Below are positions 7,301-41,482 of a stretch of DNA of 41,482 nucleotides, one piece after another. Made by a program: the position numbers and the translations under genes. The notes below the pieces were generated by a model. That model made no database searches. It was given only the letters and a program-made list of their open reading frames with translations, and had not been told where the DNA came from. Origin of the DNA: Christensenellales bacterium (GTDB taxonomy: Bacteria > Bacillota > Clostridia > Christensenellales > UMGS416); the NCBI GenBank assembly GCA_050942555.1, contig JBMNNN010000002.1, forward strand, positions 1-41,482, given 5' to 3'. Every line of letters begins with the position of its first letter. The stretch's first letter is position 1.

Positions 7301-8165
7301 CGTCCCGCTGGGTCTTTCGGGCATATTCTTCGGGCTGGGCGCAGCCAGCAAATGGATCTGCCTGTACGCCGGGGCCGGGCTGGCGGTGCTGTTCTTCTAC
7401 AGTCTGTGGATGCGCTGGCAGGAGTTTCGCGCGGCTTCCGACGCCGGGAGAGCCGGGATCGGAGAATCCGAGGCGCGGCGCATCCGTCGGCGTTTCCCGC
7501 GCAATGTGATCGTGACCCTGCTGTGGTGCGTGCTGTTCTTCATCATCATCCCGGCGGGAATATACATAGCCTCCTACATACCGTATCTTAATGTGACCGG
7601 CGCGGGCCACGATCTCCGGGATGTATGGCAGAATCAGATCAATATGTTCAACTACCACTCCAGGCTCGTGGATGACCACTTTTTCCAGTCGCCCTGGTAC
7701 CAGTGGCCTGTCATATGGAAGCCGATGTGGTTCTACCAGAACACCTACCTTGCGCCGGGCTGGATGGGCTCCATCGCGACGATGGGAAACCCCGCGGTCT
7801 GGTGGCCCGGTCTGGTCGCGATGGTGGCGCTCCTCATGCGCACGGCACGCAGGAGAGCGGCCGAACCGCTGGGCCTGTTTGTGGCGATTGGGTTCCTCGC
7901 GCAGTATCTCCCCTGGGTGCTGGTGCCCCGGTCGATGTTCATTTACCATTATTTCGCGTCGGTGCCCTTCATCATATTCGCCGTCGTCTATTATATTAGG
8001 GAGCGGTACATCGGGCGGCCTGACGGGAAAAAGAGAGTGCTCATCTATCTGGGCGTCGTGCTGTTGCTGTTCCTGTGGTTCTACCCGGTGATGTCGGGCC
8101 TTCCCATCCCGTCATGGCTGGGCAGGACGATGCGGTGGCTGCCTACCTGGTATTTTACATACTAA
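4314..8165 (+). CDS. 1283-aa envelope protein: signal peptide, CBM-like beta-sandwich, Gpi18/PIG-V-like GT-C module, discoidin-like insert and PMT/GT39-type GT-C module
   Basis: Signal peptide ends ...AAPGAAVA|DG. Module 1 shows D-x3-W-x2-W...DYPPGY within about 10 predicted TM helices. Module 2 shows FDEIYHARTAWEH...ENTHPPLGK (the DE motif of PMT-family enzymes) plus many TM helices. An internal Met at 6381 (MRMTRRDW) resembles a former gene start. The start could be the ATG at 4317 rather than the GTG at 4314. Confidence 0.7.
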   Translation: MMDSKRIVFALAAALMLILAAPGAAVADGENLLVNPEFESVSDGAPEGWKLKLYNYEEGYTETSFTTGRSGQAVVLVNAESNDARYQQKVSVEPDTLYCLSGYIMAEGVQDGWGANLSLENTFIYTDPVFDTAGQWEHVALYGRTGPRQTELIVCVRLGGYAGEAMGRAAFDGLSLRKADAVPAGYEEQSFESMPETEDDPAGLMNKYQYIRPILLIAALFLAAAMIVIRRFVRFSGEPRDHEAAPAALWVLMGLALALRVGIGAVITGYPNDIACWMGWANDTAENGLWGLYARGNFCDYPPGYMIVLWVIGKIRLLLGIPSSSPIFLVMVKLPAIAADLALGYLIYKAAHKRLGSVPAVALAGLYLMNPATLTNTAAWGQIDSLLALVVVAYLWLLYERKIVWASVAFVLGALIKPQMLLFGPVLLVVFIHFWIEQGWKKALRAFAISVVSGLALAAAVVLPFRQGQDFWWIIDKYTGTMGFYRYTSLSACNVYGLMGLLWKPDTIKLLGIPASIWGTVGIVAACLVFLIAALRDRSREHIFFYAAMLVTGIFGLGGRMHERYMYPALILLLLSSILIRDRHHLRLYILFSLTQFVNIALTLANEHLVNGDGVIFTLSALMMGGYIAMLAMAFGRIAPRMTGRVRERLCGLLVPEQGGRAPDARAGAAPSPDERAAARITNWKYTHDMRMTRRDWLAMGVLTAVYAVLAFTYLGDLRVPQTMWKASRTGESFVAEFDGEREIAEIWYYRGLSSSAAKMRFETRDASGAWTQAAVVDFTQEPYSDWSNELYKWFIAPEAMTGSAVRVTIEKPTLRLIEMAFKDAEGRNIPVKAVTDINAREEGGPLLLFDEQQLTPEYPSQMNGTYFDEIYHARTAWEHLNGIEPYENTHPPLGKDIISLGVVLFGMTPFGWRFMGALFGVLMIPVMYLLGKALFRDSRLAFIAAFLMTFDFMHFTQTRIATIDTYGVFFILCMYACMYIYYRMSFNNTPLMRTLVPLGLSGIFFGLGAASKWICLYAGAGLAVLFFYSLWMRWQEFRAASDAGRAGIGESEARRIRRRFPRNVIVTLLWCVLFFIIIPAGIYIASYIPYLNVTGAGHDLRDVWQNQINMFNYHSRLVDDHFFQSPWYQWPVIWKPMWFYQNTYLAPGWMGSIATMGNPAVWWPGLVAMVALLMRTARRRAAEPLGLFVAIGFLAQYLPWVLVPRSMFIYHYFASVPFIIFAVVYYIRERYIGRPDGKKRVLIYLGVVLLLFLWFYPVMSGLPIPSWLGRTMRWLPTWYFTY

Positions 8166-14172: not shown

Positions 14173-15048
14173 ATGACATACAGGATTTTTACCGACAGCT
14201 GTTCCGACCTGCCCGCAGAATACATTAAGAAGCACGATGATTTAACGGTATTGCCGCTTACCTATTCGCTCGATGGGAAAGAATACAGGGACGACGGCTG
14301 GGTTTCGATATCGATGGAGGATTTCTATGGCCGGATGCGCAGGGGCTCCATTTCGACGACATCCCTCATTAACGTGCAGCGATTCCTGGAGGCATTCACG
14401 CCCTGCCTTGAGAAGGGCGAGGACATACTGTACATCGCTTTTTCCTCGGCGCTGAGCGGGACCTGCCAGAACGCGATGATCGCCGCGGGCGACCTGCGCG
14501 AGCAGTTCCCCGATCGCCGCATCACGGTCATCGACAGCCTGTGCGCCTGTATGGGCTTTGGAATGCTCGTGACGCTCGCCCAGCAGAAGAAAGAGGAGGG
14601 CATGGGTTACGACGAACTCGTAGCCTGGGTGGATGATGAGAAGCTGCGCGCGGTTCACTGGTTCACCGTAGATAATCTTAACCATCTACGCAGGGGCGGA
14701 CGGCTTTCCACGACGTCGGCGTTCTTGGGCACGATCCTGTCCATCAAGCCCGTCCTTCATGTCAGCGACGAGGGGAAGCTGGTTCCGGTCGAGAAGGTCA
14801 AGGGGCGGCGAAATGCGCTGCGCAGTCTGGTGGAACGGACAGCACAGACCATTGTGGATCCCGAACAACAGACCCTTTTTATCAATCACGGCGACGCGCT
14901 CGAGGAAGCGCGCACGGTGGCTGATATGATTCGCGAGCGGATAAATATCCGGGACATCACGATCAATCCGATCGGACCTGTCATCGGTTCCCACGCGGGG
15001 CCGGGAACGATCGCCGTATTCTTTATGGGCACCGGCCGAAGCATATAG
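14173..15048 (+). CDS. DegV-family fatty-acid-binding protein
   Basis: MTYRIFTDSCSDLP... is a typical DegV N-terminus. STTS, ISIKP and GPVIGSHAGPG motifs are present. The ATG at 14173 follows GGAGGGA. Confidence 0.88.
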   Translation: MTYRIFTDSCSDLPAEYIKKHDDLTVLPLTYSLDGKEYRDDGWVSISMEDFYGRMRRGSISTTSLINVQRFLEAFTPCLEKGEDILYIAFSSALSGTCQNAMIAAGDLREQFPDRRITVIDSLCACMGFGMLVTLAQQKKEEGMGYDELVAWVDDEKLRAVHWFTVDNLNHLRRGGRLSTTSAFLGTILSIKPVLHVSDEGKLVPVEKVKGRRNALRSLVERTAQTIVDPEQQTLFINHGDALEEARTVADMIRERINIRDITINPIGPVIGSHAGPGTIAVFFMGTGRSI

Positions 15049-15060
15049 GTTAAAATAAAA

Positions 15061-15091
15061 GAAAAAGCCAGCCTCGTCAGGCTGGCTTTTA
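15061..15091. terminator. bidirectional rho-independent terminator between convergent degV and spoIVA
   Basis: Perfect 8-bp GC-rich stem AGCCAGCC/GGCTGGCT with loop TCGTCA. An A-run lies upstream and a T-run downstream, so it is usable on both strands. Confidence 0.75.
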
Positions 15092-15103
15092 TGAGCGCTT
15101 CGA

Positions 15104-16585
15104 TCAAAGAAATACGATCAGCAGCCCGCCGCTTCCTCCATGGTTTACGATGCGGGAAAGCGTGTTCCGGAGCTTGGCCTGCGCGCCGGAGGGCATCGCG
15201 TGCAGTTTCTGGTTGAGCCCTTCGCCGACCAGATCTTGGAGGGATTTGCCGAAAAACTCGGTTTTCCAGATGCTCGCGGGATTCTCCTCGAATTCCTTCA
15301 TGAGGTAATCCACCATATCCGCGCCCTGCCGCTCGGTCCCGACGACCGGCGAAACCTCGGTATCGATATCCACCTGCATGATGTGCCAGGATGGGGCGCG
15401 CGCCCGGAGCCGTACGCCGAACTGCCCGCCCCTGCGGACGAGCTGCGGCTCCTCCAGCTCCAGGTCATCGAGGGAGGGCGGGACCACGCCGTACCCGGTG
15501 AGCTTGACCTGAGCCAGCGCGCCCGACATCCGGTCGTACTCTCTTTTCGCGTGCGTAAGTTCGCTCATTATCGCCATAAGCTGGCTCTCGTCGGATATTT
15601 CGCAGCCGCACTCCTCGCTGAGCACCCGGTAGTAAAGCCGAGTAGGCGCCTCCACCTTCGCCTCGATGGTGCCGTTCTCGGGGTGAATGGCCCATATGCG
15701 AAGACCGTCCAGCTCCTCCGCCTCGCCAAAGGCTGCCAGCACGTCCTGATAGTCGCGCAGCCGGACCATGTTCCGTCCGCCCTGCGCGAGGAGCCCGAGG
15801 AGCAGCAACCACAGCCAGTGGTTCCGGGGAAGCCTGCGTATCCACCGCGGCACGTCGATGCTCATGCGGCGGACCGGGAATTCGTAGAGTACCTGGGCCA
15901 GAAGATCCTCGATCTCGGCTTCGCGCATATGCAGCACGTCCAGCGCGAGCACCGGCACATCATATTTCTCATAGAGGGAGTCCCGCAGCGCCATCGTGGC
16001 GTCCGCGTCGGGATGCGTGGAATTGAGCACCACCGCGAAGGGCTTGCCCAGCTCCTTGAGCTCGCTGATCACCCGCTCCTCGGCGGCGCGGTAGTTTTCC
16101 CGGGGAATCTCGGTAATGCTTCCGTCGGTCGTGACGACCAGCCCGATGGTGGCATGCTCCCGGATCACCTTGCGGGTGCCGGTTTCAGCGGCAACCTCGA
16201 AGGATACTTCCTCGTCGAACCAGGGAGTGCGCACCATCCGGGGGACCCCGTCCTCGATATGGCCCATCGCGCCGTCCACCATGTAGCCCACGCAGTCAAT
16301 AAGCTGAACGCTGCAGGTCACGCCGTCCGAAAGGCTTACGTCTACAGCCTCGCTGGGCACGAACTGCACCTGGGTGGTCATGATCGTGCGTCCCGCCGCC
16401 GACTGGGGCAGCGTGTCCGTAACCCGTTGCTTATGCCAGCTCGACGCCATCCCCGGCATTACCAGGAGATCCATGAACCGTTTTATAAGCGTAGATTTAC
16501 CTGTGCGGACCGGGCCCACCACGCCGATCTGTATGTTCCCGCCGGTTCTTTGGGAAATCTGCTGGTAAACGTCATATTTCTCCAT
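15104..16585 (-). CDS. spoIVA: stage IV sporulation protein A (spore coat morphogenetic ATPase)
   Basis: MEKYDVYQQISQRTGGNIQIGVVGPVRTGKSTLIKRFMD contains the Walker A motif, and similarity to the SpoIVA family extends over the full length. The ATG at 16585 follows AGAGGAG. Confidence 0.92.
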   Translation of the reverse strand: MEKYDVYQQISQRTGGNIQIGVVGPVRTGKSTLIKRFMDLLVMPGMASSWHKQRVTDTLPQSAAGRTIMTTQVQFVPSEAVDVSLSDGVTCSVQLIDCVGYMVDGAMGHIEDGVPRMVRTPWFDEEVSFEVAAETGTRKVIREHATIGLVVTTDGSITEIPRENYRAAEERVISELKELGKPFAVVLNSTHPDADATMALRDSLYEKYDVPVLALDVLHMREAEIEDLLAQVLYEFPVRRMSIDVPRWIRRLPRNHWLWLLLLGLLAQGGRNMVRLRDYQDVLAAFGEAEELDGLRIWAIHPENGTIEAKVEAPTRLYYRVLSEECGCEISDESQLMAIMSELTHAKREYDRMSGALAQVKLTGYGVVPPSLDDLELEEPQLVRRGGQFGVRLRARAPSWHIMQVDIDTEVSPVVGTERQGADMVDYLMKEFEENPASIWKTEFFGKSLQDLVGEGLNQKLHAMPSGAQAKLRNTLSRIVNHGGSGGLLIVFL

Positions 16586-16627
16586 GATCCCACTCCTCTT
16601 TTCCGGGCATAACTTCACGTTTACTAA

Positions 16628-16655
16628 TATATATGAGAGGAAAGTGGAAATATGA
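16628..16655 (-). promoter_or_regulatory. candidate sigma-E-type (mother-cell) promoter of spoIVA
   Basis: The minus strand reads TCATATT-N13-CATATATA, compared with the approximate consensus kmATATT-N13/14-CATACAhT. It lies about 43 nt upstream of the start codon. Confidence 0.4.
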
Positions 16656-16695
16656 AAAACCGGCCGGGCATCCCGCGTGGCTTACGTGTGGTTTG

Positions 16696-17298
16696 TTATT
16701 TTTCCGGGGGCTTCAGCTTCTTTTCGGTACCGGAGAGGAGCCGCCTGATATTGCTTCGGTGCAGTATGAGCACCAGTATGCTGACTCCCAGCGCGAACCA
16801 TCCGAAGTGCGCAGGTCCGGAGACGAGAAACGCGCCGATAGGGTAGAGGATGAATATGATGATCGTCCCAAGAGAAACGATGCGGCTTGCAAACATGATC
16901 GCGAAGTCTATCGCGAGCGCGGCGAGCGTGAGCAGAGGATGGAGAACCAGCAGCACGCCGCCCGACGAGGCTACGCACTTGCCGCCCCGGAAGCGCTCGA
17001 ATACCGGAAAGGCGTGCCCGAGCAGCACCGCGCCTCCCGCTACGTATGCGCCCGTATATCCGGCCCACAAAAGGCCGGCGAGCGTGGGCAGGGCGCCCTT
17101 TGCCATGTCGATGAGCAGCGTGATCACGCCCCACTTGATGCCCATCACGCGCAGCATGTTCGTGGATCCGGCGTTGCCGCTTCCCTTTTCCCGGATATCG
17201 AATCCTCCGGCTTTCCGGCTGATGAACACCGCAACCGATACGCTCCCCATAAGATAGGAGGCGACGGCAAGTATGACATAACGGACGATCGGATGCAT
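16696..17298 (-). CDS. plsY: glycerol-3-phosphate acyltransferase PlsY
   Basis: SYLMGSVSVAVFISR...REKGSGNAGSTN is characteristic, and the protein has a multi-TM profile. Confidence 0.9.
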   Translation of the reverse strand: MHPIVRYVILAVASYLMGSVSVAVFISRKAGGFDIREKGSGNAGSTNMLRVMGIKWGVITLLIDMAKGALPTLAGLLWAGYTGAYVAGGAVLLGHAFPVFERFRGGKCVASSGGVLLVLHPLLTLAALAIDFAIMFASRIVSLGTIIIFILYPIGAFLVSGPAHFGWFALGVSILVLILHRSNIRRLLSGTEKKLKPPEK

Positions 17299-17299
17299 A

Positions 17300-18619
17300 T
17301 TATCTATCCTCTCCCCGGCTCCGGCAGCTCATGCGGATAGGTGTTCCGGTAAAATCGAATGTTTTTCTCAGATAGTTTTCGAGATACCGTATATACGAAA
17401 CAGGCATAAGCTCCGGATGGTTGACGAAAAGAACGAACGTCGGAGGTGCGACGTCAACCTGTGTCGCGTAGTAGATGCGAAGTCTCCGCCCCTTATCGGA
17501 GGGCGGCTCCACCGCCGCGGTCGCGTCTCCTATTACGTCGTTGAGCACGCCGGTCGGCACGCGGAATCTGGCCTTTCCATATACATCACAGATAAGCGGC
17601 AGCAGCCGATGGTGTCGCTGTCCGGTTTTACAGGATATAAAGAGGACAGGGGCCCATGTCATAAAGGACAGCGCCGTATATACCCTGCGGGTGAATTCCG
17701 ACGTCGTATGCTCGTCCTTCTCGATGAGATCCCATTTGTTAATGACGATCACGACGGGCTTCCCCTGGTTCGCGATATACCCGGCGATCTTTGCGTCCTG
17801 ATCGGTCACGCCTTCGGTGGCGTCGATCATCAGCAACACTACATCAGCGCGGCGCACCGCGGTCAGTGCGCGAATCACCGAGTAGCGCTCCAGCGAATCG
17901 TCCTCTACGCGGCTTTTCCGGCGCATACCGGCAGTGTCGATGATGACATAGTCCCGTCCGTCGCGCGTAAAGGCGGTATCGACGGCGTCGCGGGTCGTGC
18001 CGGGTATATCGCTGACGATCACGCGTTCTTCGCGCAGCAGCAGGTTGACGAGCGAGGACTTTCCGACGTTGGGCTTGCCTGTGACCGCGAAGCGCAGCGC
18101 CTCGTTCTGCTCTCTCGCTTCCTTCCTGGGCAGAAGCGCGACGAGCGCGTCCAGCATCTCCCCAAGACCCGTACCCTGCGCTGAAGAGACCGGATAGGGA
18201 TCGCCCATGCCCAGCTCATAGAATTCGTAGATTCCTTCATCCCGGAGCGGCGTATCCACCTTGTTGACGACGAGCAGCACGGGTTTGGCGCAGCACCGCA
18301 GGTAGTCGGCTACATCCCGGTCGTCGGAGACCAGTCCGGTTTTTCCGTCGACGAGAAAGAGGATCACGTCGGCCGATGCGGCGGCCAGATCCACCTGTCT
18401 GCGCATGTGCGAGAGCATCGTTTCCTCGCTGCTTACGTCCAACCCGCCCGTGTCGATCAGCGTGAACGTGTGATCGAGCCAGTGCGCGTCGGCATAGATC
18501 CGGTCGCGGGTCACGCCGGGGGTGTTTTCGACGATGGCGATTCTCTTTCCGACTAGCCTGTTAAACAGTGTGGACTTGCCCACATTGGGGCGGCCCACGA
18601 TAGCCACGAGCGGCTTCAT
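17300..18619 (-). CDS. der: ribosome-associated GTPase Der (EngA)
   Basis: Two tandem G domains are present (GRPNVGKSTLFN and GKPNVGKSSLVN, each with DTGG/DTAG and NKxD), followed by a KH-like C-terminus. The start is at MKPLVAIVG (18619). Confidence 0.92.
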   Translation of the reverse strand: MKPLVAIVGRPNVGKSTLFNRLVGKRIAIVENTPGVTRDRIYADAHWLDHTFTLIDTGGLDVSSEETMLSHMRRQVDLAAASADVILFLVDGKTGLVSDDRDVADYLRCCAKPVLLVVNKVDTPLRDEGIYEFYELGMGDPYPVSSAQGTGLGEMLDALVALLPRKEAREQNEALRFAVTGKPNVGKSSLVNLLLREERVIVSDIPGTTRDAVDTAFTRDGRDYVIIDTAGMRRKSRVEDDSLERYSVIRALTAVRRADVVLLMIDATEGVTDQDAKIAGYIANQGKPVVIVINKWDLIEKDEHTTSEFTRRVYTALSFMTWAPVLFISCKTGQRHHRLLPLICDVYGKARFRVPTGVLNDVIGDATAAVEPPSDKGRRLRIYYATQVDVAPPTFVLFVNHPELMPVSYIRYLENYLRKTFDFTGTPIRMSCRSRGEDR

Positions 18620-32219: not shown

Positions 32220-32295
32220 GCCAATATAGCTCAGTTGGTAGAGCAGCGGTTTCGTAAACCGCAGGTCAAGGGTTCGAGTCCCTTTATTGGCTCCA
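32220..32295 (+). tRNA. tRNA-Thr (anticodon CGT), CCA encoded
   Basis: Manual cloverleaf fold: acceptor GCCAATA/TATTGGC, D arm GCTC-AGTTGGTA-GAGC, anticodon arm GCGGT-TTCGTAA-ACCGC, T arm AAGGG-TTCGAGT-CCCTT, discriminator T plus CCA. Confidence 0.9.
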
Positions 32296-32300
32296 CTTTT

Positions 32301-32377
32301 CGAGGTGTGGCTCAGCTTGGTAGAGCGCTGCGTTCGGGACGCAGAGGTCGCTGGTTCAAATCCAGTCACCTCGACCA
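32301..32377 (+). tRNA. tRNA-Pro (anticodon CGG), CCA encoded
   Basis: Manual cloverleaf fold: acceptor CGAGGTG/CACCTCG, anticodon arm CTGCG-TTCGGGA-CGCAG, T arm GCTGG-TTCAAAT-CCAGT, discriminator A plus CCA. Confidence 0.9.
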
Positions 32378-33110
32378 TTGATACACACAATCCCGGGGCC
32401 GGGAGCAGGAAAGGACGGATCATCAATCCGGTAGTAGATGGTCACGTCCTCATCGTTTATGACCACCTTTTCAATAAACCGGAGAATGACCTTCTGCTGG
32501 GCCGCGCCGCCCTTGTCTAGTGCCGTGGACTGGTGGAGCAGGTATTCGATCAACTTTTCCCGCGTAGCCAGGTCCAGATTCGAGGATTTGCTTTCCATCT
32601 CGTCAAGCTCTTCCTTGAGCGCGTCTTTGCGATGTCGGTATCCAAGCGGCGGCACACCTCCGTTGTGCCGTGCCTTTAGTGCGTTTTCCGTCAACCCCTT
32701 CTTAACTTCCCGCGCTAGATTCCGGCTGTAGTATTCCGCCATGCCCTCCAGCATGGATGCCATTATAACGGATTCCGGGCTGTCGTCCAGGCGTTCCAGC
32801 ACGGAGATCAATGACACCTCGGCGCGCTTTAGCTTTCGCCGGTATATCGCGCTGTCGTACCGGTCGCGGCTGAACCTGTCGAGTTTGTGGACGATTATCG
32901 CGGAAAACTGCCCGTTTCCCGCGTCCTCGATCATGCGCTGGAACTCCGGGCACTCGTCTGTGCGGGCTGACTGCGCGTGATCGGTGTAAATTTAGTTATT
33001 ACATACCCGTTATCCTGCGCAAACTTATTTATCGCCCGCATTTGGGCGTCAATGCTTTCCTCCCGCTGGGCCTGTGACAAGAAACGAGCGTATGCGACGG
33101 CCTCAATCAC
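32356..33110 (-). pseudogene. large serine recombinase, frameshifted and internally deleted
   Basis: The upstream frame (GTG 33110) reads VIEAVAYARFLSQAQREESIDAQMRAINKFAQDNGYVITK, then stops. The -1 frame continues (I)YTDHAQSARTDECPEFQRMIEDAGNGQFSAIIVHKLDRFSRDRYDS...GGVPPLGY. The shift lies at the AAATTT run, about 32988-32993. After PPLGY the sequence jumps straight to a coiled-coil/C-terminal tail, so the recombinase and zinc-ribbon domains are missing. The ORF tail reads into the tRNA-Pro 3' end. Confidence 0.7.
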
Positions 33111-34249: not shown

Positions 34250-35074
34250 TTAATCAAGCAGACACGAATAAGTGCACACCTGAAATTTGTCCTCGTTGGC
34301 GTGCAGATATTCGATAAGCGCCTCGAGCTTTTCAGGCGAATAGGACATCTGCGCCCCGTCGTCGGTCTCGTCTATCTTGTGCAGGTTAAGAAGCACCGCC
34401 GGCTCGCCGCCGATATAGGCCATTAGTTCCGCCTGCGCGCTCTCGACGGACTTATCGGTCAGCAAGTGTATGGTCTTTACGGGTAAATAATACGACCTGT
34501 TATTGCGAAGCATGAGTACATTGTCCGAGGTGCGGATACTACGGAAGCCTTTTTCGATGAGCAGCGGTATGAGATAGGGGTTGCACTCCCCATATGGGGT
34601 AATGACCATGTCCATGCCCGCTGTCAGGTAATGCGTATCCAGCCATTCCCTTGCCCGCATAAACTCATAGAGCATCTCCTCGCAGCGAAAGTACATGTCC
34701 TCCTTATGGGAGTATGAGTGATTCAGTATATCCCATCCCTCCAAATACAGCTCAGCCAGCTGCTCATAGGACAGGTATTCGCTCTCGCGGACCAATGCGG
34801 GAATGACGGCGATGCTGCCCCTGTACCCATAACGCTTAAGGAGCGGGTATGCGCTTGTATACACCGAGCTCCAGCCGTCGTCAAACATGAACACGACCTG
34901 CGTTCGGGTCTCATCGACGGCGCATGAGGGAATGTCCCCGTGGGAAATATTGCTGAGCCGCAGCATCGTGATTGCGGTTTTAGCGCCGCTGTACAGGCGG
35001 GTATACGTCTCTGGATACATGAGCAGCGCGAAGCAAACCGCCGCCAGCGCGAAAGCGTAGTAGAGCTTTTTCAT
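34250..35074 (-). CDS. membrane-anchored polysaccharide deacetylase (CE4 / NodB homology domain)
   Basis: N-terminal TM anchor, then NodB motifs MFDDGW and LNHSYSH. The ATG at 35074 (MKKLYY) follows AGGAG. The track ORF starts at the GTG at 35083. Confidence 0.85.
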   Translation of the reverse strand: MKKLYYAFALAAVCFALLMYPETYTRLYSGAKTAITMLRLSNISHGDIPSCAVDETRTQVVFMFDDGWSSVYTSAYPLLKRYGYRGSIAVIPALVRESEYLSYEQLAELYLEGWDILNHSYSHKEDMYFRCEEMLYEFMRAREWLDTHYLTAGMDMVITPYGECNPYLIPLLIEKGFRSIRTSDNVLMLRNNRSYYLPVKTIHLLTDKSVESAQAELMAYIGGEPAVLLNLHKIDETDDGAQMSYSPEKLEALIEYLHANEDKFQVCTYSCLLD

Positions 35075-35094
35075 TACGCACACTCCTATTTCTT

Positions 35095-37479
35095 CTATGG
35101 TATGTCGGGCTCAAAGACCGCGCGCAGCTTCAATGCTGACGTCAGATTGATGTCGAGCCTTTCGCTTTTCGAAGTAACCGCGCCCATCCATCCGGCAAAA
35201 CGATAGCCCTGCGCCGGAATCGCTTCCAGCGATACGGCTATGTCCGGGAAGTACAGGCCCGAAAACGGCAGGTCTTCGTCCTCCAGCAGAAGCGTATTGA
35301 GACGGACGGAGCCTTTTCCGGTAACGGAAACTTCGAGCCTCTGCATGTCTGAGAGCTTGAAATACTCCTTTATATAGCCGCGCATGACGTCGGTTCGTTT
35401 CTGCGCATACAGCCGCACCCGGTCGATTTCGGAGAGATATCTGTCCATACTCCCGCGGTGCAGATTCCATCTTGCCAGATGCTGCGGCACGTAGGGCAGA
35501 TATATGCTGAGCAGCGAATCAAGCTTCGCCTGGGCGGTTTCGGCGCTGTAGGAGGTATTCAGAAGGTCTGCAAATCTGGTTATGAACCAGGTCCTGAAAT
35601 CTTCGTTTGTCAGCATCGTTCGCAGCATCATGGTAAATTCATCGGTGTTGTACCACTGGTCGCTTCCTATCGCAGTCGCGTCGGCCAGCGAGTTTTCCTC
35701 ATAGCTTTTATAAAAGAGGCCGAACCCGGTATCCAGATCATACACCAGCCAACGCCACCTTCCGTCCTGTCCGTAAGGCGCCTGCGGCTCGTACATTTGC
35801 GTGCGCTTCCTCCATATGCGCACGTTGTTCGCGAGCCAATCGCGGTTGCCGCAATAGATCTGCAAAATGTTGTATTCGATGTAGTTATCAATATCGATCT
35901 GCGTTTTTACATACTCGTAGTTCTCCGGCTTGCGCATATCCACGTTTTTTATGAAAGTGAATAGTTTATTGAATGGGAACTCGTCTCCGGCAAAGCCTTC
36001 CTGCACCTCGTCGCCGATACTGCCCGTCGGGTTTTTTATGATCACCACGTCAGCGGCGTCAAAACCGTATTTGCGCGCGAGATAGTCGGCGCTGTACTGC
36101 GGACGGATGTTATAGATGCCGTAGTATTCGCCATTGATAAAGGCGATGCAGGGACAGGAGGACTGCAGATCGAGCTTTCCGGGATCGGCCAGGCTCTGGA
36201 TATAGGCGTCGCGAAACAGGGAATAATGCGCATCGGTAGCCGAATTCCTGAGTATCAGGCGGCTTAATGGGAAACGATCGGCCTCTGAGGGAAAGAAGTC
36301 GTACTCGAATACGTCGCGATCGTCATAGTCGGTATTCGCCCGGAGGCTCAGGCATTTATTGGGATGGTCGAGCGAATAGCCGCCATGGGTACGGATACCG
36401 ATATCCTGGGATATCCACAGCCTTCCTTCGGGATCAAACAGCTCCATATGCGCGGGGCGCTCCCACAGTTTGCCTTCCTGATTGTAGTTCGCGGGTAGTC
36501 CCATCATGCCCGCGGTCTCGGGGTGTAGTGTAAGCCAGTCATCCCGTACCTTTCCGGCTACATATATTCCGGTTTCGTAATCAAACAGGTTGGCTGGAGA
36601 GGTCGAAAGAGAAACGACGGGGATATCGTACCGCCCGGATATGCCCTGGTCTACAAAATAGGTTTTCGTAACGGTCTTGCTCGCGGGATAGCCGGATTTA
36701 AAGGTACGGGCGCGGACGACATAGGGCGCCGCGCGCTTATTGAGGAGCAATGGTCTCTTGTAACGCGCGGAATCCTTATTGGGCTCGGAACCGTCGAGGG
36801 TATAGCGGATTTCCGCGCCTTCCTCACAGAAAAGCTCCAGCGCCAGATCGCTCTCATAGAATCCGGCAGGCAGGCTGAATCCGGGCCCGGATAGACGCTG
36901 CCCCTGCCTGCCGTCGTTCAGCGGATCGCCTTTATTGCTGCTGCCCGCTGTGCAGCCGTCGAACCAATACAGGCTGTCGCTCCCGTCGGGCATCCGGCCG
37001 TACGATATATTTTCGTGCATGTTCCGGAAAGGCAGCACCGTGCGCCACGCGCGGGCGGGCGAGGTCAGCAGCACCACATTGTCGTTTTTGCTCAGCCTGA
37101 AATTCGCGTGCGCGCTTTTTTCGTCTATCAGCCTGTCCTTGCCCGATGTCCACACCGTTATATAGCCGTATGGCTCGATCTTAATATCGGGGAACACCCA
37201 CCGGAAAGGTTTCTGCGCGTCGTCCGACAGACCGAATCCCCTGAGATTCACCGTTTTGTCCGAGGCATTATATAGCTCCACAAAACCCGAAAACCCGCCG
37301 TCGCTCGACTGTATCAGGCCCCTGTTGAGCGGCATGACCTCGTTTATCACGATACCGAAGTGTTCGCGCGACGCTGCGGCCGAATGGACAGCAAAAAGAT
37401 CGTCGGCTAATCCGGTGGAAAGAGCTATCCCCAAACAGACCGCCACAAAGAGCACGCGCTTTAAACGCTTCCTCAACAT
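35095..37479 (-). CDS. secreted CotH-family kinase with N-terminal lamin-tail (LTD) domain and accessory beta-rich domains
   Basis: A signal peptide is present (MLRKRLKRVLFVAVCLGIALSTG). The LTD-like segment is IVINEVMP...GFVELYNASDKTVNLRGFGLSDD. A chitobiase-C-like segment is GAEIRYTLDGSEPNKDS. A long CotH-like core includes LRNSATDAHYSLFRDAY. The C-terminal segment GYRFAGW resembles an InlB B-repeat. Confidence 0.75.
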   Translation of the reverse strand: MLRKRLKRVLFVAVCLGIALSTGLADDLFAVHSAAASREHFGIVINEVMPLNRGLIQSSDGGFSGFVELYNASDKTVNLRGFGLSDDAQKPFRWVFPDIKIEPYGYITVWTSGKDRLIDEKSAHANFRLSKNDNVVLLTSPARAWRTVLPFRNMHENISYGRMPDGSDSLYWFDGCTAGSSNKGDPLNDGRQGQRLSGPGFSLPAGFYESDLALELFCEEGAEIRYTLDGSEPNKDSARYKRPLLLNKRAAPYVVRARTFKSGYPASKTVTKTYFVDQGISGRYDIPVVSLSTSPANLFDYETGIYVAGKVRDDWLTLHPETAGMMGLPANYNQEGKLWERPAHMELFDPEGRLWISQDIGIRTHGGYSLDHPNKCLSLRANTDYDDRDVFEYDFFPSEADRFPLSRLILRNSATDAHYSLFRDAYIQSLADPGKLDLQSSCPCIAFINGEYYGIYNIRPQYSADYLARKYGFDAADVVIIKNPTGSIGDEVQEGFAGDEFPFNKLFTFIKNVDMRKPENYEYVKTQIDIDNYIEYNILQIYCGNRDWLANNVRIWRKRTQMYEPQAPYGQDGRWRWLVYDLDTGFGLFYKSYEENSLADATAIGSDQWYNTDEFTMMLRTMLTNEDFRTWFITRFADLLNTSYSAETAQAKLDSLLSIYLPYVPQHLARWNLHRGSMDRYLSEIDRVRLYAQKRTDVMRGYIKEYFKLSDMQRLEVSVTGKGSVRLNTLLLEDEDLPFSGLYFPDIAVSLEAIPAQGYRFAGWMGAVTSKSERLDINLTSALKLRAVFEPDIP

Positions 37480-37491
37480 CGATACCCCCGC

Positions 37492-38165
37492 CTAGCCGGT
37501 TACCTCGCCCGAGAAGGAAACTATGTTCACTTCGCTGACGCCTATCTCGCTGTTGCCCGAAAAGAACTCTACCAGTACGTACGGGCGGTGCTTTTTCAGG
37601 TAGACCTCGTATGTCATCTCCATCGAGTCGAAGCTGCTGCTGTGCATGCGTAGCTTGTGTTTTATGCCGAACTTCCTGAGCGCGTCCTCGGCGGCCTGCT
37701 GGCGTATGCTGCCGCCCCTGAGCACCAGAAGGTAGCAGCAGTCGGAAAAGACCGCCTTGCTGAACAGGAACAGGAAAACGGCGATGAATATACTGCCCAC
37801 GACTGCGATCAGGAAAGCGCCCGTTCCCGCCGAAAGCCCCACGCTGATCGCCCAAAAAAGGAAGGTGAGATCACGGGGTTCCTTGATCGCGCTGCGGAAG
37901 CGTACGATGGAAGCGCGCCGACCATGCCCAGAGAAATGGCCAGATTGCTTCCTATCAGCATGATAACCATGGCGGTGATCATCGCGACGGCTACGATGGA
38001 GACATTAAAGCCCAGCGAATACAGCACCCCGGTGAATGTCTTTTTGTATACGAAAAAGATAAACATACCAAGGAGCGTGGTGACAGCCATATTAAGCGCG
38101 ATGGTTTCCAGCGTATATACGCTTGCGCCGTCTACGAGATAACGAAAAAGATCGACATCGTTCAT
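37492..38165 (-). pseudogene. DUF4956-family polytopic membrane protein, split by a 1-nt frameshift
   Basis: Track ORFs 37809-38165 and 37492-37842 are the two halves. Shifting frame at about 37909-37913 (plus-strand GGAAG, where GGAAAG would restore the frame) gives a continuous ...NLAISLGMVGAL-SIVRFRSAIKEPRDLTFLFWAISVGLSAGTGAFLIAVV..., which matches the family core. RBS AGGAGG precedes the ATG at 38165. Confidence 0.7.
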
Positions 38166-38178
38166 CCTTCTTATCCTC

Positions 38179-38889
38179 CTAAATATGTATTGACTGCCGG
38201 CATATACTGTATTTGCTGATCGAAGTAACCGGCAGGCTCACTACGGAAAGAATCCTGCTTATGAAAACAGGGATTGCGTTGCGGTACTTTACCTCCAGAA
38301 TACAGCGGGCATCGCGCATCGCGTTTATGGAGGGTACGCTTTTATCAAAAAGGCGCGCGGTATCCGCGGATGCCCGCAAATCCCTGTCGATCGTGATGCG
38401 TATATTTTCAAAGGGCAGCTCGAAGGCCTGCCGCTTATAGTCGATGAGAAGGATCGGCCTTAGCTGCTCCAGATGGAAGAGAGTATAGAATTTACCGGCC
38501 GCGCCGTGCGAAACCGGCGGGAGAAAGGCGCAGTCGTTCCTGCTGAGCCTGATGGCGTCCTGTCTGCCCAGCGGCATGCTCTCCTTGCACACGTACGCGC
38601 CCCGTTTGCACTTGTGCTCGAGCATCGCGACATCTGTGTCGGTATCGTAGATGCGCAGGCGAATCTTCCTGCGCTCGGAATAGCCGTTCAGCTTGTCGTA
38701 ATAGTCGCGGTTGCCGGGCGTATCGAAATACAGGCTTCGGATCCAGTACTGTCCGTCCGGCCCGGCATGCCTGTCCACGCGCATTACCCGCCGGAAATAC
38801 TGTGCGAGCATATATGCCTCGCGCTCGCTTATATAGCATTTGCATTCATGCCGGTATACCTCAGATCCCTTCTTTGTACGCTCAAGCAT
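38179..38889 (-). CDS. VTC-domain protein (polyphosphate polymerase / triphosphate-tunnel fold)
   Basis: YRHECKCYI, IRSLYFDT, RRKIRLRIY, LEHKCK, IDYKRQAF, IRITIDRDL and ILEVKY are present. This is the alternating charged beta-strand pattern of the CYTH/VTC tunnel. RBS AGGGAG is present. Confidence 0.7.
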   Translation of the reverse strand: MLERTKKGSEVYRHECKCYISEREAYMLAQYFRRVMRVDRHAGPDGQYWIRSLYFDTPGNRDYYDKLNGYSERRKIRLRIYDTDTDVAMLEHKCKRGAYVCKESMPLGRQDAIRLSRNDCAFLPPVSHGAAGKFYTLFHLEQLRPILLIDYKRQAFELPFENIRITIDRDLRASADTARLFDKSVPSINAMRDARCILEVKYRNAIPVFISRILSVVSLPVTSISKYSICRQSIHI

Positions 38890-38907: not shown

Positions 38908-40251
38908 TCATGACAGTGTATATTCATTGTTAGTCCTGCTCAGCTTATCCCAGTGCGTTCTTTTCATCAGGTATGAGGCGGTGCCCTTAATAAAATAGCT
39001 GATCCGCAGAAAGCTGAATACGACAAGGTCCATGAACGCACCCAGATATAGCGGACTCGTTTTGCTCCTCAGGCGGTATCGATCCGCGGCATCCTGCGTC
39101 ACGCGAAAGAAATGCGGACCCCGTTCAGCGGCTCTGTGTATCGCCACCAGCGAATTTATGATATTAAACAGCACCGCAAGCCCGGAAAATACGATGAAAA
39201 GCGGCGCGATGCCGACATATAAGCGTATGGCGAGCAGCAGGCAGTTGGTAAGGAAAATCATGACGGCCATGGTGCTGCTGAAACTCGCATCTGCAATCAT
39301 GAGAAAGCATACGCTGGTTCGGAAGAATTGCTTCAATAGAAAATGCCTGTTGTGCACGACCGCATCCCAAAATGCTTTCTGCCACCGAACGCGCTGCCGT
39401 CTGAGATCCTTCCAGGTCTGCGGGCACTCGGTATAGCATATCGCGTCCATCGTATAGGAAATTACCTTCTTGTGTTTTTTCGCGTATGCCTGCAGGCGTA
39501 TCGTGATATCGATATCCTCGCCAAGACCGTTCCTGAACCCGCCCACTTCGATCAGCGCGGTTTTTCTGAATACGCCGAACGCGCCTGAAATAATATTGAG
39601 CGCATTGTTCACCGACAGCGAGGGCTTGTATATATAAAACCCCTTGATATAGTCGAGCGCCTGCAGCGCGATGATCGGGGACATCCCCCTATCCATCAGG
39701 AAATACTGCATCACATGGATTGCGCCGCCCGAGGCTATGACTTCCTCGTCCTGAAAAACGCAGTTCATAATGTGCAGCGCGTTTTTTTCCAGTACGCTGT
39801 CTCCGTCGAGCGTTACGATAATTTCACCGCGACTCAGCGCGATTCCCGCGTTCAGGCTGTCTGCCTTGCCGGTGTTGGGCTTATCTATCACATATATGTT
39901 CGAGTACTTTGCCGAGCGGTACGTCTGACCGTTCTCAGCGCTGTGAAAGTCCCCCCGCTTCCTGATAAAGGGCTTAAGCCTGAGCAACCGCTTAAGAATT
40001 GTCATGGTGTTGTCGGTGGAGCCATCGTTCACGAATATCGTTTCAAAGCTCTCATAATCGAGGCGCAAGACGCCCTTTAGCGTGTTCCTGAGTATCGGAG
40101 CCTCATTAAAGCAGGGTATGACGAGCGTAAAGCGCAGCATTTTTCGCGGTGTACGTTCCGGCTCCTTTCGATAATAAAAGGAGCATATGAAATGGAGTAT
40201 CGCAAAAAACGTGCTCAGAAACGTACATGCGGTAACAAAGGCAATGATCAT
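38908..40251 (-). CDS. processive family-2 glycosyltransferase (PgaC/IcaA/chitin-cellulose-synthase-like)
   Basis: VIPCFNE, VNDGSTD, TLDGDS, GEDIDIT and QRVRWQ (QxxRW) are present, with N- and C-terminal TM helices. The start is placed at the ATG at 40251 (MIIAFV), forming an ATGA overlap with the GH16 stop. The track ORF is open from 40284. Confidence 0.85.
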   Translation of the reverse strand: MIIAFVTACTFLSTFFAILHFICSFYYRKEPERTPRKMLRFTLVIPCFNEAPILRNTLKGVLRLDYESFETIFVNDGSTDNTMTILKRLLRLKPFIRKRGDFHSAENGQTYRSAKYSNIYVIDKPNTGKADSLNAGIALSRGEIIVTLDGDSVLEKNALHIMNCVFQDEEVIASGGAIHVMQYFLMDRGMSPIIALQALDYIKGFYIYKPSLSVNNALNIISGAFGVFRKTALIEVGGFRNGLGEDIDITIRLQAYAKKHKKVISYTMDAICYTECPQTWKDLRRQRVRWQKAFWDAVVHNRHFLLKQFFRTSVCFLMIADASFSSTMAVMIFLTNCLLLAIRLYVGIAPLFIVFSGLAVLFNIINSLVAIHRAAERGPHFFRVTQDAADRYRLRSKTSPLYLGAFMDLVVFSFLRISYFIKGTASYLMKRTHWDKLSRTNNEYTLS

Positions 40252-41123
40252 CGCAGCTGGCTCCATTCCGGCTCGATGGTCCATGACTCTATCGTAAAGG
40301 TCGCGGGAAATACTGTAGTTTTATCGGGAAGTCCAGGCCATGTGCCTCCCAGCGCCTGGTTGACGATGAGATACATCGGTTCGCTGGGAACGTATTTGGA
40401 GCTCTCAAGCATGCACTTTCCGTCAATGAACCAGCGCAGGCATTCCCGGGTCCATTCGAGTTCGATCAAATATGTATCCTTCTTTTCTACCTTCGTTTTG
40501 AAGTAATCGCGCTTCTGCACCGGGCCGTCCATATAGTGCACTACGCCATAGAACACGTCGGGCGCGCGGCCTATCATCTCGTATATATCAATTTCGGGTA
40601 AGGCTTTGTTCTCCACAGGCAGGAGCCAGATGGCGGGGAAGAGGCCCTTTCCCTTCGAAACGCTTATGACAAAGGAAAACCTGCCATACAGGAAAGCGCT
40701 CTCGCTTTCCACCATCCCCGAGGTGTAGCGCTTATCGCCCATTATTTCTTCTCTTGTCGTTATGACGATGCGCCCTTCATCAAGCGCAACGTTGCCCGGA
40801 CTATAATACTGAAGCTGACCGTCGAAGCTGTCGCTGCGCTCGATGATCCGCCATTGCGAAGCGATGGAAGGCGCTGAGGCGGACGGCTGGGCGCTGCTTG
40901 CTTTGCTTTGAGCCGGAGCGGGCCTGCCGGGCGGCCTGGTTACAGCGGTGTGCAGCCCGCCGCTTCGTGCAGTTGACGGGGAGTGGGCCTGTGCAGAGCT
41001 GTTCTGGTGCGCGGCGCGCTCCGATTTGATCGCGCCGATGCTTTCAATAATATAAAAGTAAAACACGCCGCAAAAAGCAAGCGCGCATATAGATATCATC
41101 AGGCATCTTAAGAATCTTTTCAT
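40248..41123 (-). CDS. membrane-anchored glycoside hydrolase family 16 protein
   Basis: N-terminal TM helix and a Ser/Ala/Pro-rich linker. The catalytic motif is PEIDIYE (ExDxxE), and the GH16 jelly-roll segment includes FPAIWLLP. Confidence 0.8.
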   Translation of the reverse strand: MKRFLRCLMISICALAFCGVFYFYIIESIGAIKSERAAHQNSSAQAHSPSTARSGGLHTAVTRPPGRPAPAQSKASSAQPSASAPSIASQWRIIERSDSFDGQLQYYSPGNVALDEGRIVITTREEIMGDKRYTSGMVESESAFLYGRFSFVISVSKGKGLFPAIWLLPVENKALPEIDIYEMIGRAPDVFYGVVHYMDGPVQKRDYFKTKVEKKDTYLIELEWTRECLRWFIDGKCMLESSKYVPSEPMYLIVNQALGGTWPGLPDKTTVFPATFTIESWTIEPEWSQLR

Positions 41124-41158: not shown

Positions 41159-41186
41159 ATTATTCATAGCGGAATATTCTTGTGAA
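41159..41186 (-). promoter_or_regulatory. weak candidate sigma-A promoter for the GH16-led operon
   Basis: The minus strand reads TTCACA-N16-AATAAT, about 35 nt upstream of the GH16 ATG. Confidence 0.25.
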
Positions 41187-41439
41187 TCGGAGCCGGATCT
41201 GTCCGGGTTGCGGGGTGCGCCGGTATATGCAGGAAACGTGTATATCCGCTATAATATAAGCCGCCGGTTACGTAGAAGAACGGATTGCACCGGAGCGCGA
41301 ATAAAATATACAGGGGCGGATTTCTGCGCAACCTATGCTTGACGCCCGTACAAAACGATTCGCAAACAGGGCGGTCTGAACGGTGTTAGTGTAAAATAGT
41401 TCTGGGTAAATAAGCAGGCATGACTACAGGTCCCGAAGG

Positions 41440-41471
41440 GAGCCTCCCGCCCCCGCGGGGGCGGGAGGCTC
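41440..41471. repeat. perfect GC-rich inverted repeat at the window edge
   Basis: GAGCCTCCCGCCCCC-GC-GGGGGCGGGAGGCTC, with 13-15 bp arms, followed by GAAAAAAGG. There is no U tract 3' of the stem on either strand. Confidence 0.6.
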
Positions 41472-41482
41472 GAAAAAAGGTG

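Follow-up and report, generated by a model that had tools for sequence, protein, structure and literature searches.

We analysed a stretch of 41,482 nucleotides from a Christensenellales bacterium (GenBank assembly GCA_050942555.1, contig JBMNNN010000002.1, positions 1 to 41,482 of the forward strand), referred to below as the window. Between window positions 41186 and 34250, the minus strand carries a compact operon of six genes with intergenic gaps of -37 to +18 nt, encoding in this order a GH16 protein, a PgaC-like GT2 synthase, a VTC-family protein, a DUF4956 membrane protein, a CotH-family kinase and a CE4 deacetylase. The VTC, DUF4956 and CotH genes, hereafter the trio, are spaced by 11-18 nt, and each is preceded by a Shine-Dalgarno-like sequence. 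An earlier reading of this DNA (the original prediction) had located the three genes on the minus strand, at coordinates that proved correct, and had interpreted them as a split bacterial analogue of the yeast VTC synthase-translocase, possibly feeding polyphosphate (polyP) to a secreted kinase. Our analysis partly supports this interpretation. The locus is one more instance of a known, uncharacterised module, in a new type of operon, and the module is probably inactivated here.

A single peptide pattern had at least 598 matches in species-representative genomes; the linkage of the three families was examined in the best 80, which are VTC loci mostly from Clostridia. Counts were restricted to the 59 loci with at least 3 kb of flanking sequence on both sides. 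DUF4956 lies on the same strand beside VTC in 58 of these 59 loci, and CotH is present as well in 54, which bears out the co-occurrence that had been proposed as a check. The 54 full trios come in four gene orders, namely CotH-VTC-DUF4956 (27), VTC-DUF4956-CotH (19), DUF4956-CotH-VTC (7) and CotH-DUF4956-VTC (1). Two look-ups starting from DUF4956 both found VTC and CotH adjacent. A GT2 gene like that of the window is present in only 18 loci. Around the other trios, the two flanking genes on each side (130 open reading frames, ORFs) are without a common theme and include gyrase, ABC transporters and HD proteins. Since the flanks of the trios lacking GT2 share no theme, we regard the trio as a unit complete in itself, which glycan loci have sometimes recruited. 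The complete six-gene operon of the window recurs in at least 13 distant Clostridia. Further occurrences of the trio are in Coriobacteriaceae and Spirochaetales and on two plasmids, in a NELoc-2-like locus of Planococcus and in a polysaccharide cluster of Pseudobutyrivibrio.

Co-occurrence of the trio as such has been published. A cotH gene, a 'poly-phosphate polymerase' gene and a DUF4956 gene lie contiguously beside Gram-positive pel operons (Whitfield et al. 2020, PMC7112168), and the same co-occurrence is seen in NELoc-2 of C. perfringens (Lepp et al. 2010, PMC2879425). The operon context with GH16, a PgaC-like GT2 and CE4 is new. According to a 2025 study of S. intermedius, no trio was found other than at pel loci (PMC12345266). 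Confinement to pel loci is contradicted by our data, which show the trio in at least five further contexts and for the most part on its own.

A natural gene fusion offers insight into the arrangement of the three proteins at the membrane. A profile of the VTC family matched 12,848 cluster representatives in public data, of which the weaker matches may include eukaryotic VTC proteins; 1,729 matched at E ≤1e-30. One of the top 150 representatives, P0480, contains a CotH domain, a single strong transmembrane helix (residues 317-338), basic residues and a complete VTC domain. On its contig (L087), a signal peptide and the N-terminus of CotH are encoded by the preceding ORF, on the far side of a scaffold gap, and the start of a DUF4956 gene follows downstream. 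The fusion, a single metagenomic case, reads signal peptide-CotH-transmembrane helix-VTC. Such a protein would hold CotH outside and VTC inside the cell and therefore supports an inside/membrane/outside topology with coupling at the membrane. It is the best in-silico support for the topology and the physical coupling envisaged in the original prediction. We consider it very probable that the trio is one functional unit with this topology.

The VTC protein comprises 236 amino acids and matches PF09359 with 129.6 bits (cut-off 23) over profile positions 2-234 of 235. This is its sole Pfam match, and an SPX domain is absent. As had been predicted, the protein has neither a signal peptide nor a transmembrane segment. 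Its one mildly hydrophobic stretch (residues 206-224, Kyte-Doolittle hydropathy (KD) 1.77) is a helix of the globular fold in the AlphaFold2 (AF2) model, which has a predicted local distance difference test score (pLDDT) of 91.3. The fold is a closed β-barrel tunnel. A Foldseek search with this model gave Vtc4 (3g3r) as the best match (E 6.8e-15, template modelling (TM) score 0.73), and the top 12 matches are all chains of VTC complexes. Vtc4 entries rank above Vtc2/3, and these above the hydrolases among the triphosphate tunnel metalloenzymes (TTMs), with other TTMs at 6e-9 or worse. Single-sequence searches of the PDB were too weak for VTC (E 0.02) and returned nothing for CotH, and profiles were used instead; a profile of 33 bacterial VTC homologues found yeast Vtc4 (3g3q) at 1.7e-8. 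With Vtc4 numbered as the 3g3q chain plus an offset of 185, the window protein aligns K17 to K200, R77/R79 to R264/R266, K93 to K281, K102 to K294, Y151 to Y359, R153 to R361, R164 to R373, E199 to E426 and S225/K226 to S457/K458. These catalytic and tunnel residues are invariant across the 33 homologues. As the title of 3g3q states, crystals of the Vtc4 tunnel domain on its own were obtained with a phosphate polymer. Judging from sequence and model, the VTC protein is a credible polyP polymerase; whether it makes polyP we would call an even question. Its nearest relative, with 70% identity, is found in a metagenome-assembled genome of Candidatus Pelethousia.

Within the VTC family, 31 of the top 150 representatives carry a disordered, highly basic N-terminal extension of 70-390 amino acids that is rich in R, K, P and E (e.g., L038:7140-8678, L044:7098-8678, L070:6136-7623 and P0369-P0483). 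These extensions often begin with a conserved motif like DDDIFKKLKKEKPLVKR, and in composition they resemble the substrates of Bacillus CotH, which are rich in Ser, Lys and Arg.

The DUF4956 gene of the window is read as two overlapping ORFs (38165-37809 and 37842-37492), neither of which matches Pfam alone. Restoring one base between positions 37912 and 37911 yields a DUF4956 protein of 224 amino acids that matches PF16316 with 39.1 bits (cut-off 30.6) and shows three hydrophobic peaks in a hydropathy plot. The original prediction of a polytopic membrane protein is upheld by the AF2 model of an intact homologue with 82% identity (pLDDT 74), which has five membrane helices; the window copy is split by a 1-nt deletion. 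The model further contains a C-terminal β-α-β-β-α-β domain. Foldseek matched this domain only, to ACT domains and to the C-terminal domain of MgtC (2lqj; TM score 0.59, E 0.095). The MgtC family PF02308 is matched weakly by 31 of 35 DUF4956 homologues (best 6.2e-5, under the curated thresholds), with no match for the window protein itself, and JGI labels several DUF4956 members YhiD-like. The most conserved motif of the alignment is SLGMVGALSIVRFRxxIKxPxD, with an invariant RFRxxIKxPxD loop. By the positive-inside rule, the protein would be oriented N-out and C-in, with the conserved motif and the ACT-like domain in the cytoplasm, on the same side as VTC. As judged by profiles and model, DUF4956 is a distant MgtC-like protein and not related to the yeast VTC channel. 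Proteins of the MgtC/SapB/YhiD group likewise combine a polytopic N-terminal domain with a small C-terminal ACT-like domain, whereas DUF4956 is a separate Pfam family (PF16316) and obligately paired with VTC. A channel role of DUF4956 is possible but unsupported, and we find it doubtful that the protein conducts polyP.

Both DUF4956 fragments were found with identical sequence on 9-10 contigs from three sources (NCBI, JGI, Logan), although some of these contigs may be re-assemblies of the same reads. Because the exact fragments recur in this way, we regard the deletion as a real and apparently common allele, and an assembly error was rejected as the cause of the break. Programmed -1 frameshifting, in which re-reading one T would restore the native sequence, was rejected as well, since the site has neither a slippery heptamer nor a homopolymer and since an intact allele is known. 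The intact allele is that of strain L001 (Logan ERR10905742), 99.7% identical over 5.6 kb, in which the base is present (L001:1687) and the 224-residue DUF4956 protein is complete. What L001 lacks is a continuous CotH frame, which four inserted nucleotides, TATA, interrupt between window positions 35950 and 35949 (L001:3650-3653). Different frameshifts in two near-identical strains suggest that this lineage can do without the module or selects against it. Since the break in the window removes the most conserved motif of the DUF4956 family, the membrane component is probably non-functional in this strain, and the module is hence probably defective.

The CotH protein (794 amino acids) matches PF08757 over profile positions 1-321 of 322 with 135.4 bits (cut-off 23.8; 4e-39). 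Its N-terminus, MLRKRLKRVLFVAVCLGIALSTGLA (KD 1.81), is hydrophobic and signal-peptide-like by hydropathy, and it looks like a Sec-type signal, in keeping with the exported kinase of the original prediction. An N-terminal hydrophobic segment is likewise present in 56 of 68 trio-linked CotH proteins, a C-terminal anchor in none; three of the proteins without the segment are truncated ORF calls and uninformative on export. Profile searches find B. cereus CotH (5jd9), to whose residues D224, N229 and D247 the window residues D547, N552 and D581 align. In B. subtilis CotH, the counterparts of D224/D247 are D228/D251, mutation of which abolishes activity (PMC7821199). The presence of catalytic residues had been named as a further check, and D547, N552 and D581 are kept in 70, 70 and 71 of 71 aligned CotH domains, respectively. 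At D583, the second Asp of the D-x-D motif, the same alignment has Asp in 39 and Cys in 30 domains, a split that may mark two functional CotH subclasses. We take the class to be extracellular because homologues bear tails of the type IX secretion system (T9SS) or dockerins. From its sequence features, the CotH class appears extracytoplasmic and catalytically competent, and the LTD, CHB_HEX_C and InlB-repeat modules would point to a glycan- or wall-associated target. In Bacillus, CotH resides in the cytoplasm of the mother cell and so has access to ATP. This spore-coat kinase (Nguyen et al. 2016, as cited in PMC7821199) shares with the window protein the catalytic Asp, the Asn and the metal-binding Asp; it has ~360 amino acids (359 residues in the 5jd9 chain), whereas the window CotH, with 794, is exported and equipped with LTD, CHB_HEX_C and InlB-repeat modules.

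CotH genes were also seen in two contexts marked by T9SS tails. Rhodohalobacter encodes two paralogous LTD-CotH proteins with such tails ~4 kb apart (L082:7001-10438 and 14525-17438), among Tricorn-like β-propeller genes and glycoside hydrolases and with no VTC or DUF4956 nearby. In Flavobacterium, a T9SS LTD-CotH gene (L083:7001-10354) sits in the middle of a polysaccharide locus with flippase, GT2, aminotransferase and dTDP-sugar genes, a further association of CotH with glycans without VTC or DUF4956.

Among known systems, the pel accessory genes come close to the window locus. There too, the same three families are contiguous and co-oriented beside a synthase-dependent, deacetylated exopolysaccharide system, secretion is predicted for CotH, and DUF4956 is described as an MgtC-like transmembrane domain plus an ACT domain. 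The window differs in lacking pel genes and DUF4832, and its partners are a PgaC/IcaA-like GT2, GH16 and CE4. NELoc-2 resembles the window in having a VTC-domain gene, a membrane protein of 222-226 amino acids, CotH and a 'chitin synthase' GT2. Its membrane protein is annotated 'tubulin/FtsZ' and is presumably DUF4956, as judged by size and position only. In contrast to the window, NELoc-2 has a duplicated pair of VTC and membrane gene, a HEAT-repeat protein and an unknown protein of 685 amino acids, the type that the Planococcus plasmid matches, and as described it is without GH16 or CE4.

The yeast VTC complex, in which the Vtc4 polymerase is joined with a Vtc1/2/3 membrane channel (3g3q, 7ytj, 8i6v), shares with the window proteins the tunnel fold with all catalytic residues and the coupling to a polytopic membrane protein. 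By analogy, it would also share with the mechanism considered below that polyP is made on one side of a membrane and delivered to the other. Unlike its yeast counterpart, the bacterial tunnel domain is a separate, soluble protein that lacks SPX and has one more invariant Glu in strand 1. Its membrane partner is MgtC-like, with five transmembrane helices plus an ACT domain, and unrelated to the three-helix VTC/DUF202-type domain, and the proposed destination of the product is the cell exterior. Of the split analogue in the original prediction, the enzyme part is plausible, given a Vtc4-like protein with the full residue set; DUF4956 is unrelated to the yeast VTC membrane domain, and for that part the comparison is a functional analogy only.

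The features of the operon are listed in Table 1. GH16 is kept at the same position in at least 12 related loci and in L086. The GT2 synthase is closest to PgaC/IcaA/NodC, yet it falls under the cut-offs of these families (TIGR03937 PgaC_IcaA at 3.5e-41, under the cut-off of that family). The CE4 deacetylase shows a weak likeness to PgaB, IcaB, NodB and PdaB and is also kept at its position in related loci. A search against Rfam found no riboswitch in the ~360-nt leader, and promoter and terminator scans of the region gave no more matches than expected from shuffled sequence. NCBIfam has no model for VTC, DUF4956 or CotH. A contiguous pelDEADAFG cluster is absent from the operon, and the stretch from the promoter-like site to the CE4 stop codon has no gene other than the six. 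A known defence system was ruled out, PADLOC giving no meaningful match.

Table 1. Features of the six-gene operon, in order of transcription (positions in the window).
Feature	Position	Strand	Evidence and remarks
Promoter-like site	41159..41186	(-)	TTCACA-16-AATAAT, 10/12 positions; consensus match only; within the non-coding leader of ~360 nt that precedes the operon
GH16 glycoside hydrolase or transglycosylase, first operon gene	40248..41123	(-)	PF00722 at 5e-17; N-terminal anchor/signal, hydrophobic segment 8-26
Processive membrane GT2 synthase, PgaC/IcaA/NodC-like	38908..40284	(-)	PF00535 at 7e-24 and PF13641; transmembrane segments at N- and C-termini
VTC protein, soluble, Vtc4-like triphosphate tunnel metalloenzyme	38179..38889	(-)	PF09359 at 1.8e-37; AF2 and Foldseek
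DUF4956 gene, split by 1-nt deletion	37492..38165	(-)	Frame-corrected product matches PF16316 at 8e-10
CotH-family kinase, exported, multidomain	35095..37479	(-)	Pfam: LTD, CHB_HEX_C/Fn3_assoc, CotH, InlB B-repeat; N-terminal signal/anchor
CE4 polysaccharide deacetylase with N-terminal anchor, last operon gene	34250..35083	(-)	PF01522 at 2e-15

With this inventory at hand, we propose a tentative reading, which we hold at a little under even chances: the trio forms a membrane-spanning three-component module inside a synthase-dependent exopolysaccharide operon and acts in three steps. VTC would make a phosphoanhydride product at the membrane from cytoplasmic nucleoside triphosphate (NTP), most probably polyP. 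DUF4956, as the membrane partner of VTC, would hand this product, or the ability to draw on it, on to the cell exterior. There, the exported CotH would phosphorylate the nascent, partly deacetylated glycan or a surface protein. A more specific version is PPK-independent polyP synthesis, export through a DUF4956 oligomer and use of polyP by CotH on a cationic exopolysaccharide. We regard this version as improbable, and it is likewise unlikely that CotH uses polyP as its phosphoryl donor. In this version, CotH would use polyP instead of ATP to phosphorylate, or to attach polyP chains to, the partly deacetylated and hence cationic exopolysaccharide, and free polyP would also cross-link it ionically. 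Tripolyphosphate is known to gel chitosan, and DNA cross-links Pel. Such an export, if true, would explain how an extracytoplasmic kinase is supplied with a phosphoryl donor, and why the trio is recruited to loci that carry a deacetylase (pel loci and the type of the window locus). A paper proposing polyP export to an extracellular CotH was not found in the searched literature.

The proposal bears on several broader points. In two recent reviews (PMC10657179, PMC12526157), the role of polyP polymerase is assigned to VTC in eukaryotes and to PPK in bacteria; despite this framing, the bacterial VTC family is large, at the 12,848 representatives given above. For exported CotH-fold kinases with intact catalytic residues, the question arises what source of phosphoryl donor they have outside the cell. 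Since Vtc4-like enzyme, membrane protein and exported kinase are so nearly always encoded together, and given the fusion, this question can be tested directly with three small proteins. Moreover, the module occurs in biofilm and virulence loci (Pel in streptococci, NELoc-2 in C. perfringens), and its chemistry may affect matrix properties and host interaction.

Several observations weigh against the three-step mechanism. Neither the 80 loci nor the top 150 family representatives include a VTC-DUF4956 fusion, and the CotH domain fused to VTC in P0480 has Glu and Ser at the positions of the catalytic Asp and Asn. A DUF4956 profile run against the PDB with E up to 10 found no VTC chain and only a marginal YbeD-like match, and no VTC-complex chain was among the 50 Foldseek matches listed for the DUF4956 model. 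The window's own copy of DUF4956 is frameshifted, and the two T9SS-type CotH genes inspected have no VTC or DUF4956 nearby. Genetic data on the trio of S. intermedius (SIR_1592-1594), for which its authors propose a role in phosphate metabolism, are in part on the same side: deletion of VTC gave no detectable phenotype, and deletion of DUF4956 led to more Pel (PMC12345266). The DUF4956 deletion also lowered aggregation, and deletion of CotH led to less Pel and less aggregation (PMC12345266); that both deletions change Pel level and aggregation speaks for the proposal. Finally, MgtC, the nearest family of DUF4956, is known as a regulator and not as a channel, and is described as acting on ATP synthase and PhoR (PMC12345266). 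These last points lead to the main rival, a regulatory module in which nothing is translocated. DUF4956 would be an MgtC-like membrane regulator of phosphate/ATP homeostasis whose ACT domain senses a ligand, VTC would provide a local signal or buffer by making or hydrolysing polyP or triphosphate in the cytoplasm, and the pair would tune polysaccharide output; CotH would act on its own outside, either with released ATP or in a binding role. The weak but consistent MgtC-family matches in 31 of 35 members, the resemblance of the C-terminal domain to ACT domains and 2lqj, and the YhiD-like names at JGI all favour it. So do the S. intermedius phenotypes, which it fits better than the three-step mechanism does, as loss of a negative regulator would raise Pel and the VTC deletion is silent. 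It fits the CotH linkage and the fusion poorly, however. An exported kinase as near-obligatory third gene (54 of 59 loci) is left unexplained, as is a CotH-VTC fusion across a transmembrane helix, and a trio standing alone beside unrelated housekeeping genes has nothing obvious to regulate. Overall, we rate the regulatory explanation as rather unlikely.

A further objection to the three-step mechanism concerns VTC itself. In the bacterial family, E15 is invariant at the position of T198 in Vtc4, and the first-strand motif RxExK is nearer to the ExExK of TTM hydrolases than to the RQTTK of Vtc4; because of this resemblance, the VTC protein may have triphosphatase or hydrolase activity. VTC might then be a tunnel-fold hydrolase or another enzyme using NTP or triphosphate, with the polymerase name carried over from yeast, and its product or energy would serve DUF4956 and CotH in another way. 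The VTC model does match YgiF, ThTPase and CYTH enzymes at lower scores, and the searched literature holds no assay or other biochemical data on any bacterial VTC protein. Against a hydrolase, all residues aligned to the catalytic and tunnel set of Vtc4 are kept, including K200, which is lost in the inactive paralogues Vtc2/3. The fold search also separates Vtc4 (7e-15) from Vtc2/3 and all hydrolases (6e-9 or worse), and the PF09359 match spans the whole VTC model. We thus judge a hydrolase quite improbable. Least likely by far is a role in sporulation as in Bacillus subtilis, with CotH phosphorylating spore-surface proteins and the operon building a glycan layer on the spore surface. A SpoIVA gene at window positions 15104-16618 on the minus strand marks the organism as an endospore former, and the deacetylase has a faint similarity to PdaB. 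Against such a role, Bifidobacterium, Planococcus, Coriobacteriaceae and Spirochaetales, in all of which the trio occurs, are non-spore-formers. The trio of Bifidobacterium is reported together with that of Streptococcus, and the streptococci are called non-spore-forming (PMC7112168). Moreover, although B. subtilis CotH is a coat kinase (PMC7821199), Bacillus CotH is without the signal peptide and the glycan-binding-type modules found in the window protein.

Beyond the operon, we noted some features of the surrounding DNA. At window positions 32220-32934 and onward to 41482, tRNA-Thr(CGT) and tRNA-Pro(CGG) are directly followed by a serine recombinase truncated at its N-terminus (resolvase profile positions 55-143 only) and an XRE-type helix-turn-helix gene with a strong promoter-like site. 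The GC content falls from ~0.63 to 0.43-0.55. The whole polysaccharide/trio operon may be a tRNA-integrated island whose far end lies beyond the window. The extreme end of the window (41430-41482), which precedes the operon leader, contains a long, perfect, GC-rich hairpin (GAGCCTCCCGCCCCCGCGGGGGCGGGAGGCTC) with a T-run on its 5' side when read on the minus strand, probably the terminator of an adjacent gene beyond the window. At the other end, a plus-strand ORF of 1283 amino acids (4314-8165) joins a GT87 domain with PMT (protein O-mannosyltransferase-like) domains, a GT-C fusion that to our knowledge has no counterpart in other Clostridia-like genomes.

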